A stretch of DNA of 62,594 bases, filler included, from Candidatus Desantisbacteria bacterium CG1_02_49_89 (GCA_001871075.1; 5 parts of 5 records of this genome joined end to end with filler, not necessarily neighbours in it); one strand, 5' to 3'; counted from the whole stretch's first letter, positions 15,681 through 61,102 are shown. A program made the numbers and translations. The notes: generated by a model from the sequence alone, not told the origin.

Positions 15681-16369
15681 TTTTCATCCCCTTCGTCTCC
15701 GAGATGAGAAAGCACAATAACAATATCGGCCTTGCCTTTTGTGTCAGCAATGATCTTTTTCAAAACCGCTGCCGGGTCAAGGATCACAAGCCCTTCGATC
15801 TTTTCTTTGGGGAAGAAAAGGAACGCCCTGTCATTCACAACAGACGCTATCAGGATCTTAAATCCGCCTATATCCTTGATTATGTACGGCTTAGTAAATA
15901 ATGGGGACTGTCCCGATTTTTGTAAGTCAAAATCGGGACTGTCCCCTTTTACTGCGATCGTCGCTGACAGGAACGGGAAAGTTGCTTTCCCCATAAGTTC
16001 CTTGAGCGCTTCTTTCCCGTACATGAATTCCTGGTCACCCAGGCCGATCGCGTCGTAACCCATCAGGTTTACGGCTTTTATAGCGTATTCCGCCTGGTCC
16101 TGCGGCGCAAGCACCGGGAACAGGTCACCCGAATCCAGGACAAGGATATTCCGGTATTTCTTGCGCATTTCCTTTATGAACGCCGCGCGCCTGGGCATTC
16201 CGCCGTTAAGCAGGTTCGGGCAGGTCGGGCAGGCATTCAGCCTTCCGTTGGAGGAGTTAGTGAACAGTATTGTAAGTTCGCCTGATTTGTTCTCCTGCGC
16301 AAAAATTGAAAATGAAGAATAAATCGCCAAAGGTAAAAAAATTAGCAATACAATTTTTTTTAGTGACAT
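15681..16369 (-). CDS. Secreted 5'-nucleotidase-like metallophosphoesterase, truncated at contig end
   Basis: GGMPRR...LDSGD...MGYDAIGLG...FPFLSAT...IVLSHLG. Confidence 0.8.
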
Positions 16370-16425
16370 ACTCCTGCCTCTCTATACTGATATTTCTGTT
16401 CTATTTAAATATTTTTCGTAAAAAA

Positions 16426-17601
16426 TTAGAAAGTTTGGCAAAAACCTAAATTTATCTGATCGACTTTTAATGTAAAATAAGGAAGGAATCCGGATCCATT
16501 GCTGTCCTCTGAAACGTTGAAATTATATGCATCCAATGCCTTTTTTAAATGCTCATCTCCCTGTGCTCCGCAGATCCAGCCGCCTATAGGACTTATGATC
16601 CACATACCCCATCCTCCTGCACCACTCAGAATGGAACCTGCCACATAAAGTCCTGAATTATAGCTATAGTAAGCATAATTATATTGAAAAGAAGAGATCT
16701 GTAATACTAACCCAACCCAATACATAGCCTCAAAAACCGTCCCTGCTACCGCCCATCCCTCACAGGCTTTATACCATCCTATCGCTTCCTTGATCTCAAA
16801 TTGAGCAGATCCGGGAAAACCGCTTCCTTCAAGAAGTTGTTCTACAGTCTTAACATTTGACAGCTTTAACGTTTCGTTCAGGGTTCCATCGCCGTTTGCC
16901 CCGCAGATCAGCCCGCCTACCGGAGTAACAAAATACGCGTAAGGAATGAGGCCGAGTGGCACCCACGTGGCGCATGCTTTATACCAGCCTATCGCGTCCC
17001 TAAGTTTCTGCTGTACCGGAGGAGTAAAAGAACTCTGATAAAGAAGTGTATCAAAAGAAACGGCGTATCCTTTCTTGGTTTTTTCTTCTTTGATAATTCT
17101 CTGAGGGACTTTCTCAAGCGCGGATAATCCTGCTATCTTGCTTGCGATATTCCTGAGCGAAATAAGAAGTGAGTCCTCCTCACACCCGGCGCATTCTTCT
17201 GTCTCTGCTTTTTCTATCTGGCCCGACTGCACATCTATGATCTTAACATTGATCAAATAGGTACTGCCTATCTTGCCTATTGTGCCGGTAAATATCTTGC
17301 GCACGCCAAGCAGCTGGCCCATCTGTATAAGGCATTCCTGGGAAGTGCAGCCTGTCATCTGGAACTGCTGTTCCTTTAATATCTGTTCCATATTTTCTCT
17401 TGTCACAATGGTGAATTTTGCGGTATTAACAAGTTGCGTGCGCAGATAATCGGACAGCATAAATACCACGCCAGGAGAAACTCCTTCCTTTGCTTCCATC
17501 TCCATTACCGCAGCGGTCACTTGTATTTCCTGGGCGTATGCCGAAAGTATAAAATTTAACATTAAAAACAAGGTCTGGGCCACCACTACGGTCTTTTTCA
17601 T
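16426..17601 (-). CDS. Secreted/membrane protein with CsgG/HfaB-like N-terminal domain and duplicated Cys-containing domain
   Basis: RENMEQILKEQQFQMTGC..QECLIQMGQLLG motif; internal repeat IGWYKAC...P.GG.ICGA.GD. Confidence 0.65.
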   Translation of the reverse strand: MKKTVVVAQTLFLMLNFILSAYAQEIQVTAAVMEMEAKEGVSPGVVFMLSDYLRTQLVNTAKFTIVTRENMEQILKEQQFQMTGCTSQECLIQMGQLLGVRKIFTGTIGKIGSTYLINVKIIDVQSGQIEKAETEECAGCEEDSLLISLRNIASKIAGLSALEKVPQRIIKEEKTKKGYAVSFDTLLYQSSFTPPVQQKLRDAIGWYKACATWVPLGLIPYAYFVTPVGGLICGANGDGTLNETLKLSNVKTVEQLLEGSGFPGSAQFEIKEAIGWYKACEGWAVAGTVFEAMYWVGLVLQISSFQYNYAYYSYNSGLYVAGSILSGAGGWGMWIISPIGGWICGAQGDEHLKKALDAYNFNVSEDSNGSGFLPYFTLKVDQINLGFCQTF

Positions 17602-17668
17602 GGCGTCTCCCGGTGAACAATCATTCCATTTCTTTTTTACACGTTTATCTAAATATCTACGCTATAAT

Positions 17669-18226
17669 CTATTTCAGTAATTGGCTCAACTTCTCGTCAA
17701 GCTTCTTGTCTATTTCCTTGTCTTCTTTTGAAACTGACAGGATCTTGCGGTTCTTATCGATGAGTATCGTGTGCGGAACTGACTCAAAACCGTATTTCTG
17801 GAGTGTCTTCTGGTACATGTCAAGCAAAATGGGAACTTCAACGCCGTAATCTTTTATGAACTGAGGAAGCACTTCCTCGGGCTTTCCGTCAATGCTTATC
17901 AGGAACATTTTCAAGCCTTTGTCCTTATATTTTTCATAAATTCTCTGGAGGGCAGGCATCTCCTCCATGCACGGGAAGCATATGGTAGAAAAGAAATTCA
18001 GGATCACGACGGCTCTCTGTTTCTTTAGCGCCGGAGGGGTCTTAGTGTCATCAACGTCGCAGAAATTCTTGAGGGAAACGTAACTGCCTTCAAAATCGCG
18101 CAGCATAAAAAGCGGAGCCAGCTGTCCGGGTTTCACGGGTTTCAGTTCAGCGGCCTGAATAACAGCTGAAAGCTGAAAGCCCAAAGCTGAAAGTATGATG
18201 ATAATCAAAAAAATAAGCTTTTTCAT
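17669..18226 (-). CDS. TlpA-family thiol-disulfide oxidoreductase
   Basis: LNFFSTICFPCMEEMP CxxC; YGFESVPHT; start reassigned to MKKLIF after GGAG RBS. Confidence 0.9.
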   Translation of the reverse strand: MKKLIFLIIIILSALGFQLSAVIQAAELKPVKPGQLAPLFMLRDFEGSYVSLKNFCDVDDTKTPPALKKQRAVVILNFFSTICFPCMEEMPALQRIYEKYKDKGLKMFLISIDGKPEEVLPQFIKDYGVEVPILLDMYQKTLQKYGFESVPHTILIDKNRKILSVSKEDKEIDKKLDEKLSQLLK

Positions 18227-18407
18227 TTTTTCTCCTTTTTTTGATCTCTGATTACAGTGATTTCTGACTGCGATTACGGTGATTATTTGTTTATTATTTA
18301 AGCTATGACACTCTGATACGGCGCCTGCCCGCCGAAGCACCAACAAACCTTTTCGAATAGAAAATTTTAGGTTTGTTGGGTATTTGCGCAGGCGGGACAC
18401 TATGATA

Positions 18408-19052
18408 CTATGACTCTTTGAATCCTTTCTCCCTCAACAGGCAAGCGTCGCATTTCCCGCAGGGTTTTTTCCCGCCCGCGTAACAGGACCAGGTCAGATC
18501 AACCGGCACCCCAAGCCTTTCCGCGAGCCTGACGATCTGGGCTTTGTTCATTTTGAGAAGCGGCGCTATAATAGCCGCGGGCCTGCCCTTGATACCGCAT
18601 TTTGTGCCCAGCCTGGCAACGAGCCTGAAAGCGTTGAAATATGAAGGCCGGCAGTCCGGGTATCCGCTGAAATCAACAGCGTTCGCCCCTATAACCACCG
18701 CGTTCGCGCCTATTGTTTCAGCGCAGGAAAGCGCTATACTGAGGAATATAGTATTTCTTGCCGGCACATAGGTTGAGGGGATCCTGGATCTTATTTCTTT
18801 TAATGACGACGGCCTTGGCAGCCTGCCCGAGCCGCCGAACAGGGAACTGCCCTTCCACGGCAAATTTAACTTTACTATTTTCAGCTGACAGCCTGCTTTC
18901 CGTGCGACTGCAGCCGCGGACCTGAGCTCTCTTATATGGCGCTGTCCGTAGTCAAAAGCAAGGCACAGGCATTTCCAGCCTTTTGACCTTGCCCAAAAAA
19001 GCGATGTTGAGGAATCAATACCGCCTGATAAAAGAACCACTGCCTTTTTCAT
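18408..19052 (-). CDS. queC: 7-cyano-7-deazaguanine synthase
   Basis: LLSGGIDS, TYVPARN, GYPDCRP, CGKCDAC. Confidence 0.98.
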   Translation of the reverse strand: MKKAVVLLSGGIDSSTSLFWARSKGWKCLCLAFDYGQRHIRELRSAAAVARKAGCQLKIVKLNLPWKGSSLFGGSGRLPRPSSLKEIRSRIPSTYVPARNTIFLSIALSCAETIGANAVVIGANAVDFSGYPDCRPSYFNAFRLVARLGTKCGIKGRPAAIIAPLLKMNKAQIVRLAERLGVPVDLTWSCYAGGKKPCGKCDACLLREKGFKES

Positions 19053-19178
19053 AATCTTTTAACCACGAATTCCCACGGATTCTTTGCTTCGCAACATTCT
19101 TTGTGGGCTACGTCGATAAACGACGAATTTCACGAATTATAAACTTGTAAACTCTGTAAACTATGTAAACTGTATAAA

Positions 19179-19541
19179 CTATTTTTTTCTATAAACAACG
19201 CGCACGGAATCGGATTCTGAAACGCAAACTTCAACAAGGTTTGGCAGGATTTTTTTCAGGCCCGAAAAAATAAATTTCGCTATGTTCTCAGAGGAAGGAT
19301 TGTTTTTCCTGAAGAAATCGATCTGGTTCAGGAACGCATGGTCAAGATTTTTATTGACGAAACCTTCGGCTATGTCTTTTACTTCTCCGGCATCCCTCAC
19401 CATGCCCAGCTTGTCCAGTTTACCCGAACGCAGGAATACTTCAACCTTCCAGTTGTGCCCGTGAAGCTTCGCGCACCTGCCTTTGTGCCCGCGTATGCTG
19501 TGAGCCGCCGAAAAATCAGTCCCTACTCTCAATTCAAACAT
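19179..19541 (-). CDS. queD: 6-carboxytetrahydropterin synthase
   Basis: FSAAH...C..LHGHN...LDH..LN...PSSENIA. Confidence 0.95.
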   Translation of the reverse strand: MFELRVGTDFSAAHSIRGHKGRCAKLHGHNWKVEVFLRSGKLDKLGMVRDAGEVKDIAEGFVNKNLDHAFLNQIDFFRKNNPSSENIAKFIFSGLKKILPNLVEVCVSESDSVRVVYRKK

Positions 19542-19594
19542 CTTTTTCTCTCTTAAACTCTGACACGCTGATACACTGACACGTTGACACGCAT

Positions 19595-20404
19595 TTAGCT
19601 GTATTCCTCTATATCGATCTTTTCAACGCTGTCAACCTGGTGCCCAAGGAATGCGCCGCCTATTTTTTTGAATTTTTCCGGGTTATCGCTTACAAAAAAT
19701 TTATGCCAGCCCTTGCCTTTACCTTCGTTAGCAAGCCCTCTTTCGCGCAGCACGTCGGCGCACTCGCTGGCAACCCCGCCCGAATCTACTATTGAAACTC
19801 CGCTGCCCATAATTTTCTTTATTGTTTCCCTGAGTAAGGGGTAGTGCGTGCAACCGAGTATAAGCGTGTCAATTTTCTCCTTCTTCAGGTCTTTCAGGTA
19901 CTCGCCGGCTATGGACACGGTCTCTTTCCTGTTAAACCATCCCTCCTCAACCAGGGGCACGAACAGCGGGCAGGACTCCGGAAATACCTTTATGTCCGGG
20001 CCGCTGTTCTTGATCTCTCTCTCGTACGACCCGCTCGAAACAGTGCTTTCCGTGCCTATCACGCCTATTTTCCTGTTCTTTGTGCACAGGACCGCAAGCC
20101 TTGCGGCGGGCGCTATAACGTCAATTATAGGCACTGAAGGGAATTTCTCCCTCAGGAATCCCATCGCTGTGGCAGAAGCTGTATTGCATGCCACGATAAC
20201 AAGCTTGACGCCGTGAGTAAGCAGGAATTTTATGTTGCCTTTGCAGAATTTCCTTATCGTGTCCGCGCTTTTCGTCCCGTAAGGAACCCTTGCGGTATCT
20301 CCGAAATAAACCACGTTTTCATGCGGAAGGTGGTTGAATACTTCCCTGGCTACGGTCAGCCCGCCTATGCCCGAATCAAAAATCCCCACCGGCCTCTCAT
20401 CCAT
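19595..20404 (-). CDS. murI: Glutamate racemase
   Basis: FDSGIGG, ACNTAS, LGCTHY. Confidence 0.98.
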   Translation of the reverse strand: MDERPVGIFDSGIGGLTVAREVFNHLPHENVVYFGDTARVPYGTKSADTIRKFCKGNIKFLLTHGVKLVIVACNTASATAMGFLREKFPSVPIIDVIAPAARLAVLCTKNRKIGVIGTESTVSSGSYEREIKNSGPDIKVFPESCPLFVPLVEEGWFNRKETVSIAGEYLKDLKKEKIDTLILGCTHYPLLRETIKKIMGSGVSIVDSGGVASECADVLRERGLANEGKGKGWHKFFVSDNPEKFKKIGGAFLGHQVDSVEKIDIEEYS

Positions 20405-20419
20405 TTCTTCCTCACAAAC

Positions 20420-20505
20420 AGTTTACAGGTTTATAAGTTTACAAGTTTATAGAGTTATATCAAAATTATTGGACTTTGTAAACTATGTAAACTTTGTAAA
20501 CTCTA
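20420..20505. repeat. GTTTACAA/TGTAAAC 8-9-mer inverted tandem element
   Basis: Left arm AGTTTACAGGTTTATAAGTTTACAAG, right arm TGTAAACTATGTAAACTTTGTAAAC; relatives at 19140, 31778, 52780. Confidence 0.85.
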
Positions 20506-21612
20506 TTTACTACTGTTTTTTAAATATTCCCTTACGCCGTTATATATGGCTTCCGCTGCCATCTTCCTGAAAGACTCGGTCGCAAGCTTTGCTTCCTCCG
20601 GCGCGTAGGAGAGGAAAGCAACCTCCACAAGGACTGACGGCGCGGCGACTCCCCTCAGCACGTAAAAAAGCGCTGTCTTTACGCCGCGGTCCGTAAGCTT
20701 CAGTTTCTTTACCATATTAGCCTGGATGCTGAAGGCAACCATGCTGCTCTCGCGCACGAATTCGTGATAGATCATGTCTTCAAGGATGGACCTGAGGTAT
20801 TTGTCTTTTGACACCCCGAGCTCCCTGATCTCCAGGTTCACAACTGAGTTTTCAAGGACTTCAACCGCCCTTGCCTCTGGATCAACCGCCTCGGAAACGA
20901 AAAAAGTCTCGCATCCCTGCATCTTCGGCGAGAAAGCGGCGTTGCAGTGTATGCTTATGAAAAGCCCCGCTCCCTTCGAATTCGCGAAAGTTGCCCTGTT
21001 CGCAAGGGTCACGAACGTATCTTCATCCCTTGTCATCAGAACCCTGACCGGCAGGCGCATTGTGATAAGCCCGGCAAGTTTTCTCGCGATATCAAGATTT
21101 ATTTCCTTTTCCATCAAACCGTTCGGACCGATCGCACCCGGATCATGGCCGCCGTGGCCAGCGTCAACTATGATGAGATTGATCTTTGGAATAAATTGTT
21201 CTTCCTGCTCCTGCTTCTGCTCCTGCTCCTGCTTCTGTTTCTGCTCCTTTACCTCGTTTTTTACACCTGCTTTTGCTGATTCTCTAAGCAATCTGCCTGA
21301 AAACGCCTTGACCGCGAAACTGGACGGAACAAAAATAACGCCGTCTAAAATTTTAACCGGTGCTTCAAGGCTGAAAAGCCTGTTGTTAATAAGAGCGCGC
21401 TGGCCCTGCGGGAGCAGAACAACGGTTTCACCCGGCCCTTTCAGGACTATCCTTCCGGGATAGAACTTGTGCTGGTAGTTAAAACCATATCCCTTGCATA
21501 TATCTTCCAGCGCGATATATTCCCTGCCGTCGATCTCCGTTGTTTTCAACTCGGCCGCCTGGCAAAAAGATGCAATAAATATAAAAATCAGTATTGAAAT
21601 ATAGGATTTCAT
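20503..21612 (-). CDS. N-acetylmuramoyl-L-alanine amidase (Amidase_3)
   Basis: DAGHGGHDPGA, EKEINL, FISIHCNA, VLVEVAF. Confidence 0.95.
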   Translation of the reverse strand: MKSYISILIFIFIASFCQAAELKTTEIDGREYIALEDICKGYGFNYQHKFYPGRIVLKGPGETVVLLPQGQRALINNRLFSLEAPVKILDGVIFVPSSFAVKAFSGRLLRESAKAGVKNEVKEQKQKQEQEQKQEQEEQFIPKINLIIVDAGHGGHDPGAIGPNGLMEKEINLDIARKLAGLITMRLPVRVLMTRDEDTFVTLANRATFANSKGAGLFISIHCNAAFSPKMQGCETFFVSEAVDPEARAVEVLENSVVNLEIRELGVSKDKYLRSILEDMIYHEFVRESSMVAFSIQANMVKKLKLTDRGVKTALFYVLRGVAAPSVLVEVAFLSYAPEEAKLATESFRKMAAEAIYNGVREYLKNSSK

Positions 21613-21980
21613 TTGTTTTTGTCAGTTTCTCTTTTTTCTATTCCCAAAATCAGATTGGTAAGCATCCTGCAAACTATATCCAGATCGTTTCTGTAATTCT
21701 CAACCTCGATATTTGTTAAAATCTCGTTGCTCCTGCACATTTCCAATAAAGGAACGCACTCAAAAGCTGACCCTCTTGCTATCAGGAAAAATTGCTTTCT
21801 ATCATTCTTGCTGAACCTACCGTTCCCTTCAGCTATATTAAGGGATATAGACATTGAAGCTCTTCTTAACTGGTCTATCAAAGAATAATAACCCTTTATT
21901 TGCTCAGTTGATTTAGTAATTTTATTACTGAATTCTAAAGCCCTTTTATATACGTCTAATTTTTCAAAAAGAAATGGCAT
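21609..21980 (-). CDS. Four helix bundle protein (23S rRNA IVP / Avd-like family)
   Basis: FEKLDVY...DQLRRASMSISLNIAEG...FFLIARGSAFE; AT-rich relative to neighbours. Confidence 0.92.
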   Translation of the reverse strand: MPFLFEKLDVYKRALEFSNKITKSTEQIKGYYSLIDQLRRASMSISLNIAEGNGRFSKNDRKQFFLIARGSAFECVPLLEMCRSNEILTNIEVENYRNDLDIVCRMLTNLILGIEKRETDKNK

Positions 21981-22001
21981 AAATTCTCCGAAAAACGAAA
22001 G

Positions 22002-22230
22002 AGATTAAACAAATACTGAAAATAGAGCAATTGAGAATAGACCGTCCCAACATCTTGCTATCGCAAGATAGCAGTTGGGACTCCATTGCTCCAAATTTTC
22101 CCTTCGGGAAAAAGATTAAACAAATACTGAAAATAGAGCAATTGAGAATAGACCGCAATGTCGCTTTAATTTTAATCTATTCTCTATTTTCTATTGCTCC
22201 ATTGCTCCAAATTTTCCCTTCGGGAAAATT
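22002..22230 (-). repeat. Tandem duplicated ~110-bp element immediately 3' of tmRNA
   Basis: Two units AGATTAAACAAATACTGAAAATAGAGCAATTGAGAATAGACCG...CTCCATTGCTCCAAATTTTCCCTTCGGGAAAA; homolog at 61012-61102. Confidence 0.9.
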
Positions 22231-22232
22231 TA

Positions 22233-22575
22233 TGGAGGTGGGGGGAATCGAACCCCCGTCCGAAAATATCTCAACAGAAACGTCTACATACTTATTCCGC
22301 ATTTAATCTCGTCCCGCTCACTCCTGCGGACGGGATAAGAACGAGACCAACCTGTATTTGTTTTCGCCCCGCTTTCACAGGCATAAAGCAGAACTATCCC
22401 GCATATCTTGTGCCCTTTCCGGACCTGCGGGCGAAACCGGAAGGACATACCCGCCTAAGGCGGGTTACGCTACTAAAGTGTTCGCGTTTGAAATTTGCCG
22501 GAAATTTTACGAGGTTCCCGACATTCTCGGTATGCAGTTTCTGGTCTATATCCCCGTCGAATCCAGTTCACCCCC
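22233..22575 (-). ncRNA. ssrA: tmRNA
   Basis: 5' GGGGGTGAACTGGATTCGAC; 3' GGGGGTTCGATTCCCCCCACCTCCA with G3-U wobble; directly downstream of smpB. Confidence 0.95.
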
Positions 22576-22584
22576 ATTAATACC

Positions 22585-22650
22585 GTCGTACGTCGTAGGT
22601 CGTACGTTTTAAAGATTTATACGTACGACGTAAGACGCATGACGCGCGAC
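22585..22650. repeat. CGTACGT 7-mer inverted tandem element
   Basis: GTCGTACGTCGTAGGTCGTACG ... ACGTACGACGTAAGACGCATGACG; relatives at 23191-23270 and 44838. Confidence 0.85.
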
Positions 22651-22654
22651 GGAT

Positions 22655-23110
22655 TTAAACGTCTTTCCTGCCGCGCATCACTCTCTGCACTTCAATGTTA
22701 TCGGCTTTCTTCCTCAGGCTTTCCCGCTTGTCATGCAGGTTCTTGCCCTTGGCAAGCCCGATCTCCAGCTTGGCAACCCCTTTTTTAAAGTATAGCTTCG
22801 TTGGTATCAGGGTCAGGCCCCTGCGGGAGATCTTGCCCGCGAGCCTGTTGAGCTCTTCTTTATGAAGCAGGAGCTTCCTTGTGCGCACCGGGTCATAATC
22901 GCTCTGGTCGTATGAATAGGGGTTTATATGCATGTTATAAACGAACGCCTCACCCCTTTCTATCCTTCCAAAACCGTCCCCGATGTTCGCCTTGCCGTCC
23001 CTCAGGGACTTGACTTCCCCGCCTGTCAGCACCAGCCCGGCTTCATACGTTTCAAGTATGAAGTAATCGTGATACGCCTTTCTGTTTGTTACTATTATCT
23101 TTTCACCCAT
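22655..23110 (-). CDS. smpB: SsrA-binding protein
   Basis: NRKAYHDY...EAGLVL.GGEVKSLR...RKLLLHK...GKNLHDKRE. Confidence 0.99.
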   Translation of the reverse strand: MGEKIIVTNRKAYHDYFILETYEAGLVLTGGEVKSLRDGKANIGDGFGRIERGEAFVYNMHINPYSYDQSDYDPVRTRKLLLHKEELNRLAGKISRRGLTLIPTKLYFKKGVAKLEIGLAKGKNLHDKRESLRKKADNIEVQRVMRGRKDV

Positions 23111-23344
23111 TGTTTTTCAACTATTCAACTAAAGACTTTTTACAGGGAACCCTCCACTAAGATTGGCGGGCAGGCTTAAGAGAACTTATTTCGTCGTGCG
23201 TCGTAAGTCGTATGTCGTTCGCAAATGATTTTAATAATACGCAAGACGTTCGACACATGACGTATGACGGCATTATGAATCCCGCTGAATCCCTGTGAAA
23301 ATTGTATTTTCTATGAAAATCCGTGTAAATCCGTGGCTCAATTA

Positions 23345-23950
23345 TTATTTTGTTTTCTCGATTATCTCAATGTCGTCGATGGTCCACTCGACCGGTATCT
23401 CGGAGGCGTCCTCGCAGGCTATCCTGGGCGCGAGCATTATCCCATCCCTGGGCTGCGTGTAATAAAAGTCTATCTGCGCCTTGTGCCACCTTCGGCCGTC
23501 ATTTGCCTCTTTCAGGTATAAGATAGTGGTCTGGCGGGCGTCCACCTCCAGCATTTCCCAGCTCCATGCGACCATGTGGAAAACAAGTTGGCCTTCCTTT
23601 TCCGGCGATTTTATTTTATACCAGAAAGTAAGGGTCCCTTCAAGGGATTTTATGGGAACGAACCGGTTCAGCCAGACCGCTTCTCCCTTAGAAGTGATCC
23701 TAAGAGCCCTTTTGCCTGAGTGCGCGTCCTTGACGAATTCAAGAGAATCCCTGGGGTTCCCGCACCAACCGTCAGCGTTGTCCTTAGCAGGCACAGCCAT
23801 CTTCACCGGATCATTTTCCGGAACTATCTTTTCATTTTCCATATCGCCCTGCGGAAAAAGATTCTTCACGGTCTCTTTCTTTTCCGCCGCGAAAGCCAGC
23901 ATTCCCGCCGCCATGAACAGGCATAAAAGAACAACTGTTAATCTCCTCAT
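23345..23950 (-). CDS. Secreted protein with single CBM-like domain
   Basis: Signal peptide; DAHSGKRAL...FWYK...WH...DF...PRI...IDDI parallels the N-terminal domain of 650..5239. Confidence 0.65.
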   Translation of the reverse strand: MRRLTVVLLCLFMAAGMLAFAAEKKETVKNLFPQGDMENEKIVPENDPVKMAVPAKDNADGWCGNPRDSLEFVKDAHSGKRALRITSKGEAVWLNRFVPIKSLEGTLTFWYKIKSPEKEGQLVFHMVAWSWEMLEVDARQTTILYLKEANDGRRWHKAQIDFYYTQPRDGIMLAPRIACEDASEIPVEWTIDDIEIIEKTK

Positions 23951-24035
23951 CTTTGCCTCCTGATTAATTAGGGACAGACACTATTTATTTTGATATCTTG
24001 CTGAAAAAAAGTAGAAGCGTCCCCTTTATTTCAAA

Positions 24036-24054
24036 TGCCGAAGGGGGGAATCGA
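24036..24054 (-). mobile_element. tRNA-Leu 3'-end fragment (att site remnant)
   Basis: Minus strand TCGATTCCCCCCTTCGGCA matches the 3' end of tRNA-Leu at 60966-60984 (17/19). Confidence 0.7.
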
Positions 24055-24146
24055 CCGAGCACAAATCTTCTAACTCCTGTTATATCAATAAAAGTTAAGG
24101 ATTCCCCTCGGTATTACCCCTCCGCGATTCTTTTATTTCTTTTTAC

Positions 24147-24207
24147 TTGTTTTTATATTTTTGTGTTTGTTTTTGTCTGAACATGGCACAAATTTGGCAC
24201 AAATTTT
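24147..24207. repeat. 61-bp direct repeat, copy 1 (TGGCACAAAT x2)
   Basis: Near-identical to 25585-25645. Confidence 0.9.
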
Positions 24208-24258
24208 GTTTCCCTAATTTGCTTCAATGACTTGCTCAGCACTTTTGTATGTCTTTTC

Positions 24259-25482
24259 TTATAAGCCGATGCTTTTTAAAGGTTCAGCAAAGAAATCTTT
24301 CAGGCGAATTTGTTTTATTTTGCCTTCTACCCTATTTTTATAATTTGAAACAATAATGCCTTCAGCGTTTTTGTAACGTCTGACGAATATATTAATCCCA
24401 TTCGAAATTTTACCATCTGCCCCTGACTTAATTTCTAAAGCAATAATTCTGGACCCAACCTGAATTACGAAATCAACTTCCAATTGTCTTTCCCTCCAAT
24501 AGAAGAGGTTTCCGCCCAGGGCTTGCACCGCAAGATACAGTCTTGCCCCTGCTGCGTTTTCAACCATTCTTCCCCAGGATACCTTATCCGCTTTTGTAGT
24601 TTTGTAGTCCCTGCCTCTCATAGCGGAGATTATAGCATTGTCAAAAACAAGTAGTTTTGGTATTGAACCTTTTTGCTTCACCCTGCTTCCGCTCCACCTT
24701 TCCAAAGAACCTGCCAGAAAAGCATTTGACAGTAACTTCAGGTACGAAACCAGAGTAGTAGCGTTCCCCGCATCCTGCAGTTGTCCCAGCATTTTTTGAT
24801 AGCTGACTATTTCGGCAGGATGTGCAACGGCAAGGCCAAAAGTCTGACGCAGCAAAGCCGGCTTTGTCACGGGAGACATCAGAAGCACGTCTTTGGATAG
24901 AACGGTTTCTATCAATGAATCACGGATATAGCGCATCCACCTTTCCTCGTCCTTGCGCATGGGAAGCGCTCCGGGATATCCTCCAAAGTATAAATATTCA
25001 TTTAGATTAAGAGAAAAACACTCCCTGCATTCAGAAAATGACCACTGGTAATGCCGGTGGAGTTCAAACCGCCCTGCAAGACTTTCAGTAAGCCCCCTCT
25101 GCATTAAAAGAGCTGAGGAACCCAGCAGAACGGCTCTCAAAGGAGTTTTGTTTCTATGGTCTTCATCATATAACTTTTTTACTATTTCACTCCACCGAGG
25201 AATTTTTTGAATCTCATCTAATATAAGCAGTGTTTCCTGCTTTTTCTTTTTAGAAAGTAGTCTTGCTTTTAACCATTGTTCAGCAATCCAATTCGAAGAA
25301 GGCGTTTGAGGCAGGTCTGCTGCCTCGTAAATCTTATTGCCATTCCATTCATCCAGGATCTGCATGGCAAGGGTTGTTTTTCCCACCTGGCGCGGCCCGA
25401 CAACTGCCTGGATTAAATTGGGCTTGCAGTGCAACACCCGCCATAGAGAGTCGAATAATTTCTTTCTTTTATAGTTTTTCAC
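24259..25482 (-). CDS. AAA+ ATPase (AAA_14 + DUF4143) with PD-(D/E)XK-like C-terminus
   Basis: GPRQVGKTT, LDEIQ, ESLAGR, GGYP, EVDFV...LEIKS. Confidence 0.9.
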   Translation of the reverse strand: MKNYKRKKLFDSLWRVLHCKPNLIQAVVGPRQVGKTTLAMQILDEWNGNKIYEAADLPQTPSSNWIAEQWLKARLLSKKKKQETLLILDEIQKIPRWSEIVKKLYDEDHRNKTPLRAVLLGSSALLMQRGLTESLAGRFELHRHYQWSFSECRECFSLNLNEYLYFGGYPGALPMRKDEERWMRYIRDSLIETVLSKDVLLMSPVTKPALLRQTFGLAVAHPAEIVSYQKMLGQLQDAGNATTLVSYLKLLSNAFLAGSLERWSGSRVKQKGSIPKLLVFDNAIISAMRGRDYKTTKADKVSWGRMVENAAGARLYLAVQALGGNLFYWRERQLEVDFVIQVGSRIIALEIKSGADGKISNGINIFVRRYKNAEGIIVSNYKNRVEGKIKQIRLKDFFAEPLKSIGL

Positions 25483-25494
25483 ACCTGCCCCTAT

Positions 25495-25528
25495 TTACAA
25501 TTTGTTCAGTCGACTGAACAAATTGTAA
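25495..25528. promoter_or_regulatory. Perfect 34-bp palindrome, putative operator of the ATPase gene
   Basis: TTACAATTTGTTCAGTC|GACTGAACAAATTGTAA just upstream of the GTG start. Confidence 0.6.
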
Positions 25529-25584
25529 GTGATTATGTATAATATATTACTCATTTTTGATAAAAAGTCAAGAAAAATCAAAAT

Positions 25585-25645
25585 TTGTTTTTATATTCTT
25601 GTGTTTGTTTTTGTCTGGATATGGCACAAATCTGGCACAAATTTT
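25585..25645. repeat. 61-bp direct repeat, copy 2
   Basis: TTGTTTTTATATTCTTGTGTTTGTTTTTGTCTGGATATGGCACAAATCTGGCACAAATTTT. Confidence 0.9.
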
Positions 25646-25985
25646 ATTTCTCAAAACCAAGAATAACATTTATTTGTGTTGAATTAGGTAATGTGTCCCC
25701 GGAATCCTAAAAATTAAATGAACCCGTCCCCTTTATTCTAATTTTAGGAACTTCTTCAATTAATTAATAAATAGGCACAGCTGTCACATTTTTCTATTTT
25801 TCTTGCGAATTAAATTTAACCGTCACCTTCATTATTACCAGTCAGAAGGGACAAGGGCATTTCCTTCGCGCCACCTTTCAATAATACGTGTTTGAAAATC
25901 AACTTCTCCTGCAAATTCCGGGGACACAATACTTAATTGCCTTTTATATGGCACAAATTTAATTTCATCGCTATAGAGTAAGACA

Positions 25986-60787: not shown

Positions 60788-60900
60788 CACAAACAATTAA
60801 GAACGCAGGATAAACCACGGAGACACAGAGGCACAGAGAAGAATTTCTTGGTTTTAAACTGGATACTGGATACTGGCAACTGGTAACTGTAGTTAAGGAT

Positions 60901-60984
60901 GCCGAAGTGGCGGAATTGGCATACGCCTACGGCTCAGGACCGTAGGGGCGAAAGCCCTTGGGGGTTCAACTCCCCCCTTCGGCA
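60901..60984 (+). tRNA. tRNA-Leu(CAG), CCA not encoded
   Basis: GCCGAAG/CTTCGGC acceptor; TACGG-CTCAGGA-CCGTA anticodon arm; long variable arm; GGTTCAACTCC. Confidence 0.95.
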
Positions 60985-61011
60985 TGTCCTTTTCGCAAAA
61001 CGAAAAGGACA

Positions 61012-61102
61012 GAGCAATGGAGCAATGGAAAATAGAGAATAGGTTAAAGACAAGGCGACATTGCGGTCTATTCTCTATTGTTCTATTCTCAGATGTTTTT
61101 AA
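61012..61102 (+). repeat. tRNA-3'-linked element homologous to 22113-22210
   Basis: GAGCAATGGAGCAATGGAAAATAGAGAATAG...GCGACATTGCGGTCTATTCTC. Confidence 0.85.

Follow-up and report, generated by a model that had tools for sequence, protein, structure and literature searches.

The 3′ ends of tRNA and tmRNA genes are general hotspots of insertion, and the integrative elements that target these genes insert there. In Coxiella and Leptospira, intervening sequences of the 23S rRNA carry an S23p (23S_rRNA_IVP) ORF. In the available part of PMC4990558, this ORF has heptamer repeats just 5′ of its start codon, and a role in mobility is merely hypothesised. Avd, known from DGRs, is a nucleic-acid-binding pentamer that binds reverse transcriptase (RT), according to an excerpt of PMC5758913. 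In Methanopyrus kandleri, a palindrome of about 19 bp lies downstream of about half of the tRNA genes, which the accessible text of PMC5217627 reports for one species.

Here I describe a locus of Candidatus Desantisbacteria bacterium CG1_02_49_89 (GCA_001871075.1) in which an IVP gene lies behind a tmRNA gene. The window, i.e. the whole stretch of DNA that was analysed (62,594 nucleotides, filler included), consists of several contigs joined, and the locus lies entirely within one of them, C34 (window 15681-25985).

Layout of the locus

On the minus strand, the order is smpB, tmRNA, two copies of a short module, a 123-aa ORF and an amidase gene (Table 1). A preliminary description had given the order from the tmRNA through a hairpin, an element and its second copy to the gene, with the middle of the second copy replaced by another hairpin and an AT-rich four-helix-bundle gene overlapping the amidase start. 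All of this was confirmed. The GC content of the gene is 0.34 versus 0.49-0.51 in the amidase gene, smpB and murI, and its stop and the amidase start have 4 nt in common (21609-21612). The tmRNA gene encodes no CCA past its discriminator at 22233 (positions 74-76 are TAA), and the hairpin that was first noticed (22231-22209) starts two bases past this discriminator.

Table 1. Features of the tmRNA-IVP locus and of the second module site, in window coordinates
Feature	Position	Strand	Remarks
smpB	22655..23110	-	PF01668, 191.6 bits; host context, 5′ of tmRNA; same order in relative G001
tmRNA gene, tag ANTLVA	22233..22575	-	ARAGORN; Rfam RF00023, 195 bits
Module copy 1, hairpin P1	22209..22232	-	begins at about tRNA-equivalent position 74
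Module copy 1, stem P2 (form A)	22151..22208	-	22205 pairs with 22155
Module copy 1, pyrimidine-rich repeat tail	22114..22150	-	complementary to the loop repeats
Module copy 2 (form B)	21997..22113	-	P1 shorter; P2 swapped for a nested hairpin (22081-22044); core and tail retained
Spacer	21981..21996	-	GGAG 5 nt ahead of ATG, candidate ribosome-binding site
Four-helix-bundle / 23S_rRNA_IVP gene, 123 aa	21609..21980	-	PF05635, TIGR02436; tRNA-element-linked branch
N-acetylmuramoyl-L-alanine amidase	20503..21612	-	PF01520; host context; directly after tmRNA in G001
Gene-less module copy behind tRNA-Leu(CAG) (60900-60985)	60982..61094	+	model R1; training-set member

The P2 stem of copy 1 holds 7-8-nt repeats in its loop and is closed by a conserved core, GA-G / C-GG-UC. 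The two copies (about 22232-22114 and 22113-21997) are 100% identical over a 5′ block of 32 nt and 98% identical over a 3′ block of 48 nt. A search with model R1 gave 83.5 bits for copy 1, which is a member of the training set, and 28.9 bits for copy 2. The region has a folding z of -6.1, with 0 of 200 shuffles equally stable. In the window, R1 finds the module at two sites only, the tmRNA locus and tRNA-Leu, and all copies belong to the tRNA-end family.

No consensus promoter or terminator was found between the tmRNA and the IVP gene, and the matches of that scan are not taken as evidence. Neither an integrase nor a duplicated tRNA end, the hallmarks of tRNA-targeting integrative elements, is present between the tmRNA and the amidase gene. 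In two RNA runs, contigs cover the tmRNA only (22239-22566) and not the module or the gene, and the DNA runs continue through. As contigs are unable to show absence, this is at most a weak hint of trimming. Two DNA runs contain no deletion joint across the IVP gene.

Other repeats were seen close by. Inverted heptamer arms whose unit resembles that of the paralog arms on C39 lie between smpB and the tmRNA 5′ end (22577-22659), and a hexamer repeat within the amidase gene (21203-21248) is in frame and encodes a Q/K/E-rich linker. Direct 11-nt doublets on either side of an AAA_14/DUF4143 gene (24184-24206 and 25622-25642) look like the edges of a small island.

A module at the 3′ ends of tRNA genes

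ARAGORN finds 45 tRNA/tmRNA genes in the genome. The module lies directly at the 3′ end of 34 of them (33 of the 44 scored and tRNA-Asn), and at two further tRNA genes a later insert has produced a duplicate of the tRNA 3′ end, with the module following that duplicate. Among 34 strict matches to the core motif, 32 follow a tRNA gene at a distance of up to 421 nt, and the remaining two lack the rest of the module. The module, about 115 nt in length, consists of hairpin P1, GA-G, stem P2, C-GG-UC and a tail of 7-8-nt repeats, and its orientation is always sense relative to the tRNA. Its left join is sharp; the tRNA-end duplications in this genome belong to other inserts. P1 starts at tRNA positions 72-76 (mode 74) in 27 of the 29 copies without an encoded CCA and at 77-78 in three of the four copies whose tRNA gene encodes CCA. 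This shift from 74 to 77 is as expected if the join follows RNA ends.

Thirty copies were parsed. In 17, the loop of P2 contains repeats (form A); the other 13 retain the core and tail and have a different hairpin in place of P2 (form B). P1 is likewise replaced in three of the 30. Thus, neither the swapped middle nor the tandem doublet is a peculiarity of the tmRNA locus, since form B is found genome-wide and doublets also occur at other tRNAs.

Base pairing of P2 is conserved. With anchors set by sequence alone in 46 elements, P2 positions 4-8 are paired in 212 of 230 cells, compared with a mean of 142 and a maximum of 162 in 2000 shuffles, although relatedness among the elements inflates such tests. 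RNAalifold recovers P2 unaided. An alignment of 27 short-form elements shows 91% pairing in P2, with double changes at five pairs, and a second pairing, of the loop repeats with the tail, reaches 82% and would give a pseudoknot or an alternative fold. Empty copies retain their pairing. The P2 mismatches (three G-U and five A-C) have no RNA-strand bias and are uninformative on RNA versus DNA. In Rfam searches of the locus and of 20 loci, only tRNA and tmRNA scored above the gathering score, with no family for the module and no ribozyme match. The Gut-1 RNA motif (RF01706) was not among the matches at E values of up to 10 at the locus and up to 0.5 in the 20 loci.

Some further traits of the genome were observed. 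All 17 form-A copies have tandem G-A / A-G mismatches at P2 pairs 7-8, where most relatives have G-C / A-U. A small AT-rich ORF, GIY-YIG nuclease-like by eye, lies between tRNA-Ser(GGA) and its module (C81:19747-20091), with a 14-nt tRNA-end duplication. Most tRNA genes of the genome lack an encoded CCA, yet no RNase Z scores over the family cut-off.

The IVP protein and its paralogs

The 123-aa protein matches PF05635 (93 bits; cut-off 33.8) and TIGR02436 (87.6 bits; cut-off 24). Its predicted structure (pLDDT 91) has four helices and resembles the IVP structures 2GSC and 2RLD (Xcc0516 / BT_0352 fold; TM 0.75-0.82). By analogy with the solved homologs, the product is likely to be a homopentameric ring. 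The family had been described beforehand as homologous to DGR Avd. A distant likeness was found: the predicted model shares its fold with the Avd structures 4DWL and 8UB7 (TM 0.67-0.71), and the proteins are similar in size and basic pI. On the other hand, the protein is not a DGR Avd, because the identity is 11-13%, it matches PF05635 and not PF22296 (bAvd), and no RT is adjacent at the locus. The genome search for PF22296 lists two other paralogs, both under the cut-off. The one RT of the genome is a DGR-type fragment at the end of another contig (C119:37001-37624; L312), and no bAvd scores over the cut-off in the assembly.

Proteins of the branch to which this one belongs are basic (median pI 9.1). 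The genes are under purifying selection, with a median dN/dS of 0.12 over 101 non-independent pairs from 82 genes and no pair reaching 1. Broken copies are common; 4 of 15 Omnitrophota matches have internal stops. A search for viral relatives gave 89 pattern matches, of which 0 were confirmed.

The genome has ten IVP loci (11 matches), and the tmRNA locus is the only one attached to the tRNA-end module. The nine others are on contigs C96, C39, C55, C114, C56, C23, C25, C6, and C125; the C125 gene is frameshifted, and the C25 locus is cut by the contig end. By eye, the eight other loci with both flanks assembled have complementary arms on both sides, and by script the reverse unit was found downstream of the gene in seven of these eight. 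The nine paralogs have nine different 7-8-nt units, with 2-38 arrays of each in the genome versus 0 in a shuffle. Thus, the expectation of the preliminary description that paralogs go with repeat arms was borne out. At the tmRNA-linked gene, no downstream arm was found, and the tail pairs with the stop region at -6.5 kcal/mol against a control mean of -11.8, which rules out that the gene is enclosed by arms there. Among homolog loci, only a minority have an arm-like repeat on the downstream side.

This gene had also been put forward as the sole candidate partner of the tandem repeats in the window, a claim that found no support. Three of the nine paralog units have arrays inside the window, so that those repeats point to other paralogs, and the genome offers more candidates in five GxxExxY and ten Y1 genes, which are flanked by repeats of their own. 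The gene is probably not the partner of any window repeats other than the tRNA-end family.

The GxxExxY (PF13366) genes, on C114 (two), C17, C56, and C45, are AT-rich and lie mostly within inverted arms with units of about 10 nt. The Y1/RAYT-like genes form several subgroups (C13, C100, C38, C114, C80, C23 (two), C111, C83, and C51), and by eye their flanks mostly carry inverted or tandem repeats of their own and not the tRNA-end module. Many 7-9-nt arrays of the window have about 4-5 copies, near the five subunits of the IVP ring.

Homologs form a branch linked to the module

In a relatives panel of 21 genomes, the best two matches (54-55%) are both from G008, and both lie behind tRNA-Ser genes with the same core. 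A wider genome scan found a same-strand tRNA ending no more than 310 nt upstream in 19 of 62 loci, including the top five; these are records of Planctomycetota, Auribacterota, UBP3, and Omnitrophota. For metagenomes, the best 80 of 486 confirmed matches were taken. A tRNA or tmRNA lies within 400 nt in 44 of the 67 metagenome loci that have 250 nt or more of flanking sequence and in 10 of the 14 Omnitrophota loci with enough flank. Of the 74 metagenome loci whose flank is 150 nt or longer, 58 have the module next to the gene according to a motif finder, which reported it in 6 of 2224 control windows. The module is upstream in 53 of the 58 and on the far side in reverse in five. The core stands about 30-50 nt from the start codon in most loci.

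Is the module tied to a particular lineage of the protein? A FastTree phylogeny was built from 148 proteins, 26 of 174 having been dropped as short, duplicated or without flank. A branch of 80 (support 96) includes this gene and 67 of the 68 module-positive loci; the module is present at 67 of 80 loci inside the branch and 1 of 68 outside, in a sample in which the branch is over-represented, the metagenome loci having been picked by likeness to the query, and in which the labels played no part in the choice. The branch holds 60 tRNA-adjacent loci from several phyla, with ten kinds of tRNA/tmRNA by amino acid, counting tmRNA. Hence this clade of the protein goes with this one module. In a smaller IQ-TREE run, the gene grouped, among the sequences listed, with five tRNA-linked loci at a clade support of 99/93.

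The gene is reversed in 9 of the 80 metagenome loci. Eight of these converge on the tRNA and/or module, the contig of the ninth (L252) is too short to tell, and three of the nine adjoin integrase-like remnants. Riding on the tRNA transcript is therefore not universal. With one DGR-type fragment as the query, 0 RT-like genes were found in 181 homolog loci (624 kb), and a Y1 transposase was found at one site only among these loci.

A second tRNA-linked IVP branch exists in Bacteroidota and Patescibacteria (L037, L038, L040-L044, L049, L050, L053, L064, and L136), with other repeat units or none. Two of its members follow tRNA-Ser by about 30 nt or less and have no module.

Co-occurrence of gene and module across genomes

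In 301 genomes of Omnitrophota, the phylum of G021, ten were gene-positive at E 1e-30. Model R1 found the module in nine of these ten versus 7 of the 148 gene-negative genomes searched (of 291), counts that overstate independence, as they do for the loci above, since the genomes and loci are related. R1 training drew on four of the ten gene-positive genomes, and five of the remaining six were positive. Module copies away from the gene were found in six of the ten, and in G215, G258, and G290 the copy next to the gene is the only one. G021, which has the gene, shows few module copies (directly at 1 of 36 tRNAs; six model matches), and its best gene copy carries a stop.

Among the module-bearing gene-negative genomes, G040 (L289) has a tRNA followed by the module and a 7-codon stub of the gene. 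Six of the seven have neither gene nor stub at the copies examined, in assemblies that are incomplete, and four of the five checked have only more distant IVP genes. At least two of 20 model matches inspected (L283 and L286) are not behind a tRNA-like end.

Among the 21 genomes of the relatives panel, only the present genome (G000; 23 matches) and G008 (20 matches) have the module, and both have this branch. In G001, the only other genome of the same order (87% complete), smpB, tmRNA and the amidase gene are adjacent, with no match to the IVP protein and no module at the 34 tRNAs seen. Absence from a sister genome, a check suggested in the preliminary description, was thus seen; this one relative cannot tell a gain of gene and module from a loss.

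Different inserts were also encountered. The G001 tmRNA (L016) is followed by a different insert of about 110 nt and has its 3′ end duplicated. Several tRNA ends of G021 (L093-L122) carry another hairpin-led repeat family whose first hairpin pairs with the encoded CCA. In G310, a module copy (L286) follows the stop of a gene whose end, going by a motif, is presumably that of guaA, another known integration site.

Comparison with described systems

The locus resembles the rRNA intervening sequence in its protein family, in the position of the gene on a stable-RNA precursor and in the short tandem repeats ahead of the start codon. Judging from the available part of PMC4990558, it differs in that the host RNA is tRNA or tmRNA and the element is appended past its 3′ end, not inside. 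Moreover, the hairpin does not contain the gene, and there are about 35 copies of the empty module. The locus is not within an rRNA gene, and no terminal inverted repeats enclose the ORF.

One gene flanked by a repeat with many gene-less copies is the pattern of REPIN-RAYT and MITE-transposase pairs, as far as the accessible text of PMC5581495 goes, and the module is likewise short, non-coding and multi-copy with inverted arms. Unlike in those pairs, the gene encodes no known transposase and has no recognised catalytic motif, the targets are almost all tRNA ends, and no cognate transposase is linked, given the different flanks of the Y1 genes and the single Y1 site in 181 loci. Tandem inverted repeats next to RAYT genes, looked for by term in both versions of Bertels 2017 (PMC5581495 and 10.1101/119735), did not turn up there as a described arrangement and are not used for comparison. 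Theta ribozymes, as the excerpt of PMC10879173 presents them, are also structured RNAs starting a few bases from the tRNA 3′ end at many tRNA types, and the 5′ end of the module is within 5 nt of that end. The module, however, is not HDV-like by Rfam or by layout (hairpin, stem and tail), is chromosomal, and has tandem repeats and a partner gene. The M. kandleri palindrome, so far as its source describes it, is similar in that one motif recurs, at a constant position, after many tRNA genes of a single genome, but it is about 19 bp in length, is reported in one species and has no partner gene. Compared with integrative elements that target tRNA/tmRNA genes, the locus lacks an integrase and a duplicated tmRNA end, and the module is not restricted to one tRNA sequence.

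By these analogies, the system appears to work most like an rRNA intervening sequence relocated to the tails of tRNAs, and it shares with REPIN-RAYT the pattern of one gene and many empty copies. It lacks a defining feature of each of the rRNA intervening sequence, REPIN-RAYT, theta ribozyme and Avd. The pairing of module and protein is real, spans phyla and is built from known parts. Its specificity to one branch is new here; no description of it was found in the literature searched, whose coverage leaves out most subscription journals and supplements.

Discussion

The preliminary description had proposed that the locus may be a gene-bearing version of the element. The confinement of 67 of the 68 module-positive loci to one branch and the absence of both parts from G001 agree with this. 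On balance, I favour the reading that the locus is the single gene-bearing master copy, beside about 35 gene-less ones, and that the protein is the element's own non-catalytic helper. The gene is a likely partner in the spread of the module because it sits at the only gene-bearing copy and comes from a branch found beside the module in several phyla.

I infer that the protein acts in trans. The gene would be expressed as the tail of the smpB-tmRNA transcript, and its product, by homology a basic five-subunit ring, may bind the 7-8-nt repeats or the fold of the module, with catalysis borrowed from another enzyme. It is possible that the module RNA is released at position 74 by 3′ processing, that a borrowed RT makes cDNA from it and then switches to another tRNA at its free 3′ end, and that the joined cDNA recombines into the gene of that tRNA. 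Empty copies could come from helper action or later gene loss. This route, from module RNA by template jumping to cDNA and a tRNA gene, is tentatively the likeliest means of copying. In its favour are the position of the join (74, or 77 where CCA is encoded), the lack of any preference for a tRNA sequence, the unvarying sense orientation of the module and the Avd-like fold. It is weakened by the lack of a linked RT in 181 loci (one query) and by the unlinked RT fragment of the genome.

Could the module instead serve its host or its gene? It might be a cis-acting device for 3′ processing, kept for maturing the host's CCA-less tRNAs, either as a self-cleaving RNA or as a platform for cleavage at 73/74 by the IVP ring or a host nuclease. 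The module begins at the processing site, its invariant core adjoins the base of P1, either stem can be exchanged entirely for another hairpin with the core retained, and the loop-tail pairing could give a pseudoknot. In addition, RNase Z is below the cut-off in this genome, and theta ribozymes, as far as the excerpt of PMC10879173 goes, are a precedent. I consider this unlikely, since RNase Z scores over the cut-off in 0 of 50 other genomes tested, with or without the module, and G001 has many CCA-less tRNA genes and no module; evidently, hosts manage without it. The missing Rfam ribozyme match and the free variation of the bases at the would-be cut site also argue against it. A slightly less probable view makes the module a mere leader RNA of the IVP gene, for expression control or autoregulation, with passive empty copies as by-products of duplication, gene conversion and gene loss, and a protein unrelated to spread. 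The near-fixed spacing between core and start codon, the deletion stub in G040, the three genomes with a gene-adjacent copy only and the frequent broken genes suit this view. However, from one tRNA gene to another there is hardly any common sequence at the acceptor end, so that ordinary recombination fails to account for arrival at 34 ends, all different, in a near-fixed position; moreover, reversed genes keep a module that cannot serve as their leader, and empty copies keep their pairing.

It is improbable that the module is a REPIN/MITE-like DNA element moved by an HUH (Y1) transposase or an integrase, which would recognise the tRNA arm in single-stranded DNA, with the IVP gene as cargo. The ten Y1 genes of the genome, the mismatches without RNA-strand bias, the flips in gene orientation and the integrase-like remnants beside three reversed loci are consistent with such an element. 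The other repeats at the Y1 genes and the one Y1 match among 181 loci are not, and cargo would not be expected to be confined to one branch in 67 of 68 cases. Least credible is that an IVP gene fell by chance into a tmRNA insertion hotspot beside an unrelated repeat. Other inserts do occur at such ends, as at the G001 tmRNA and tRNA-Ser(GGA), but the counts of 58 of 74 versus 6 of 2224, and of 67 of 80 inside the branch versus 1 of 68 outside, refute this unless the motif finder is biased.

As a more speculative possibility, the locus may represent a class of mobile elements that home, by structure and not by sequence, to processed 3′ ends of tRNA or tmRNA of any kind and combine a conserved RNA module, possibly catalytic, with an Avd-fold ring. 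The locus also points to a hitherto undescribed structured element with which most tRNA genes now end in some bacteria; this is relevant to the maturation of tRNA and to the ways in which DNA arrives at so many different tRNA ends. For the IVP family, which is found widely, has solved structures and lacks an assigned function, this locus offers a specific candidate ligand: a short conserved module with covarying pairs, tied to one branch, with nine sibling pairs of paralog and repeat for comparison. More widely, the IVP paralogs may each act as specificity factor of a separate family of 7-8-nt repeat elements; this would account for the orphan protein family as well as for the swarms of heptamer repeats that many bacteria have.
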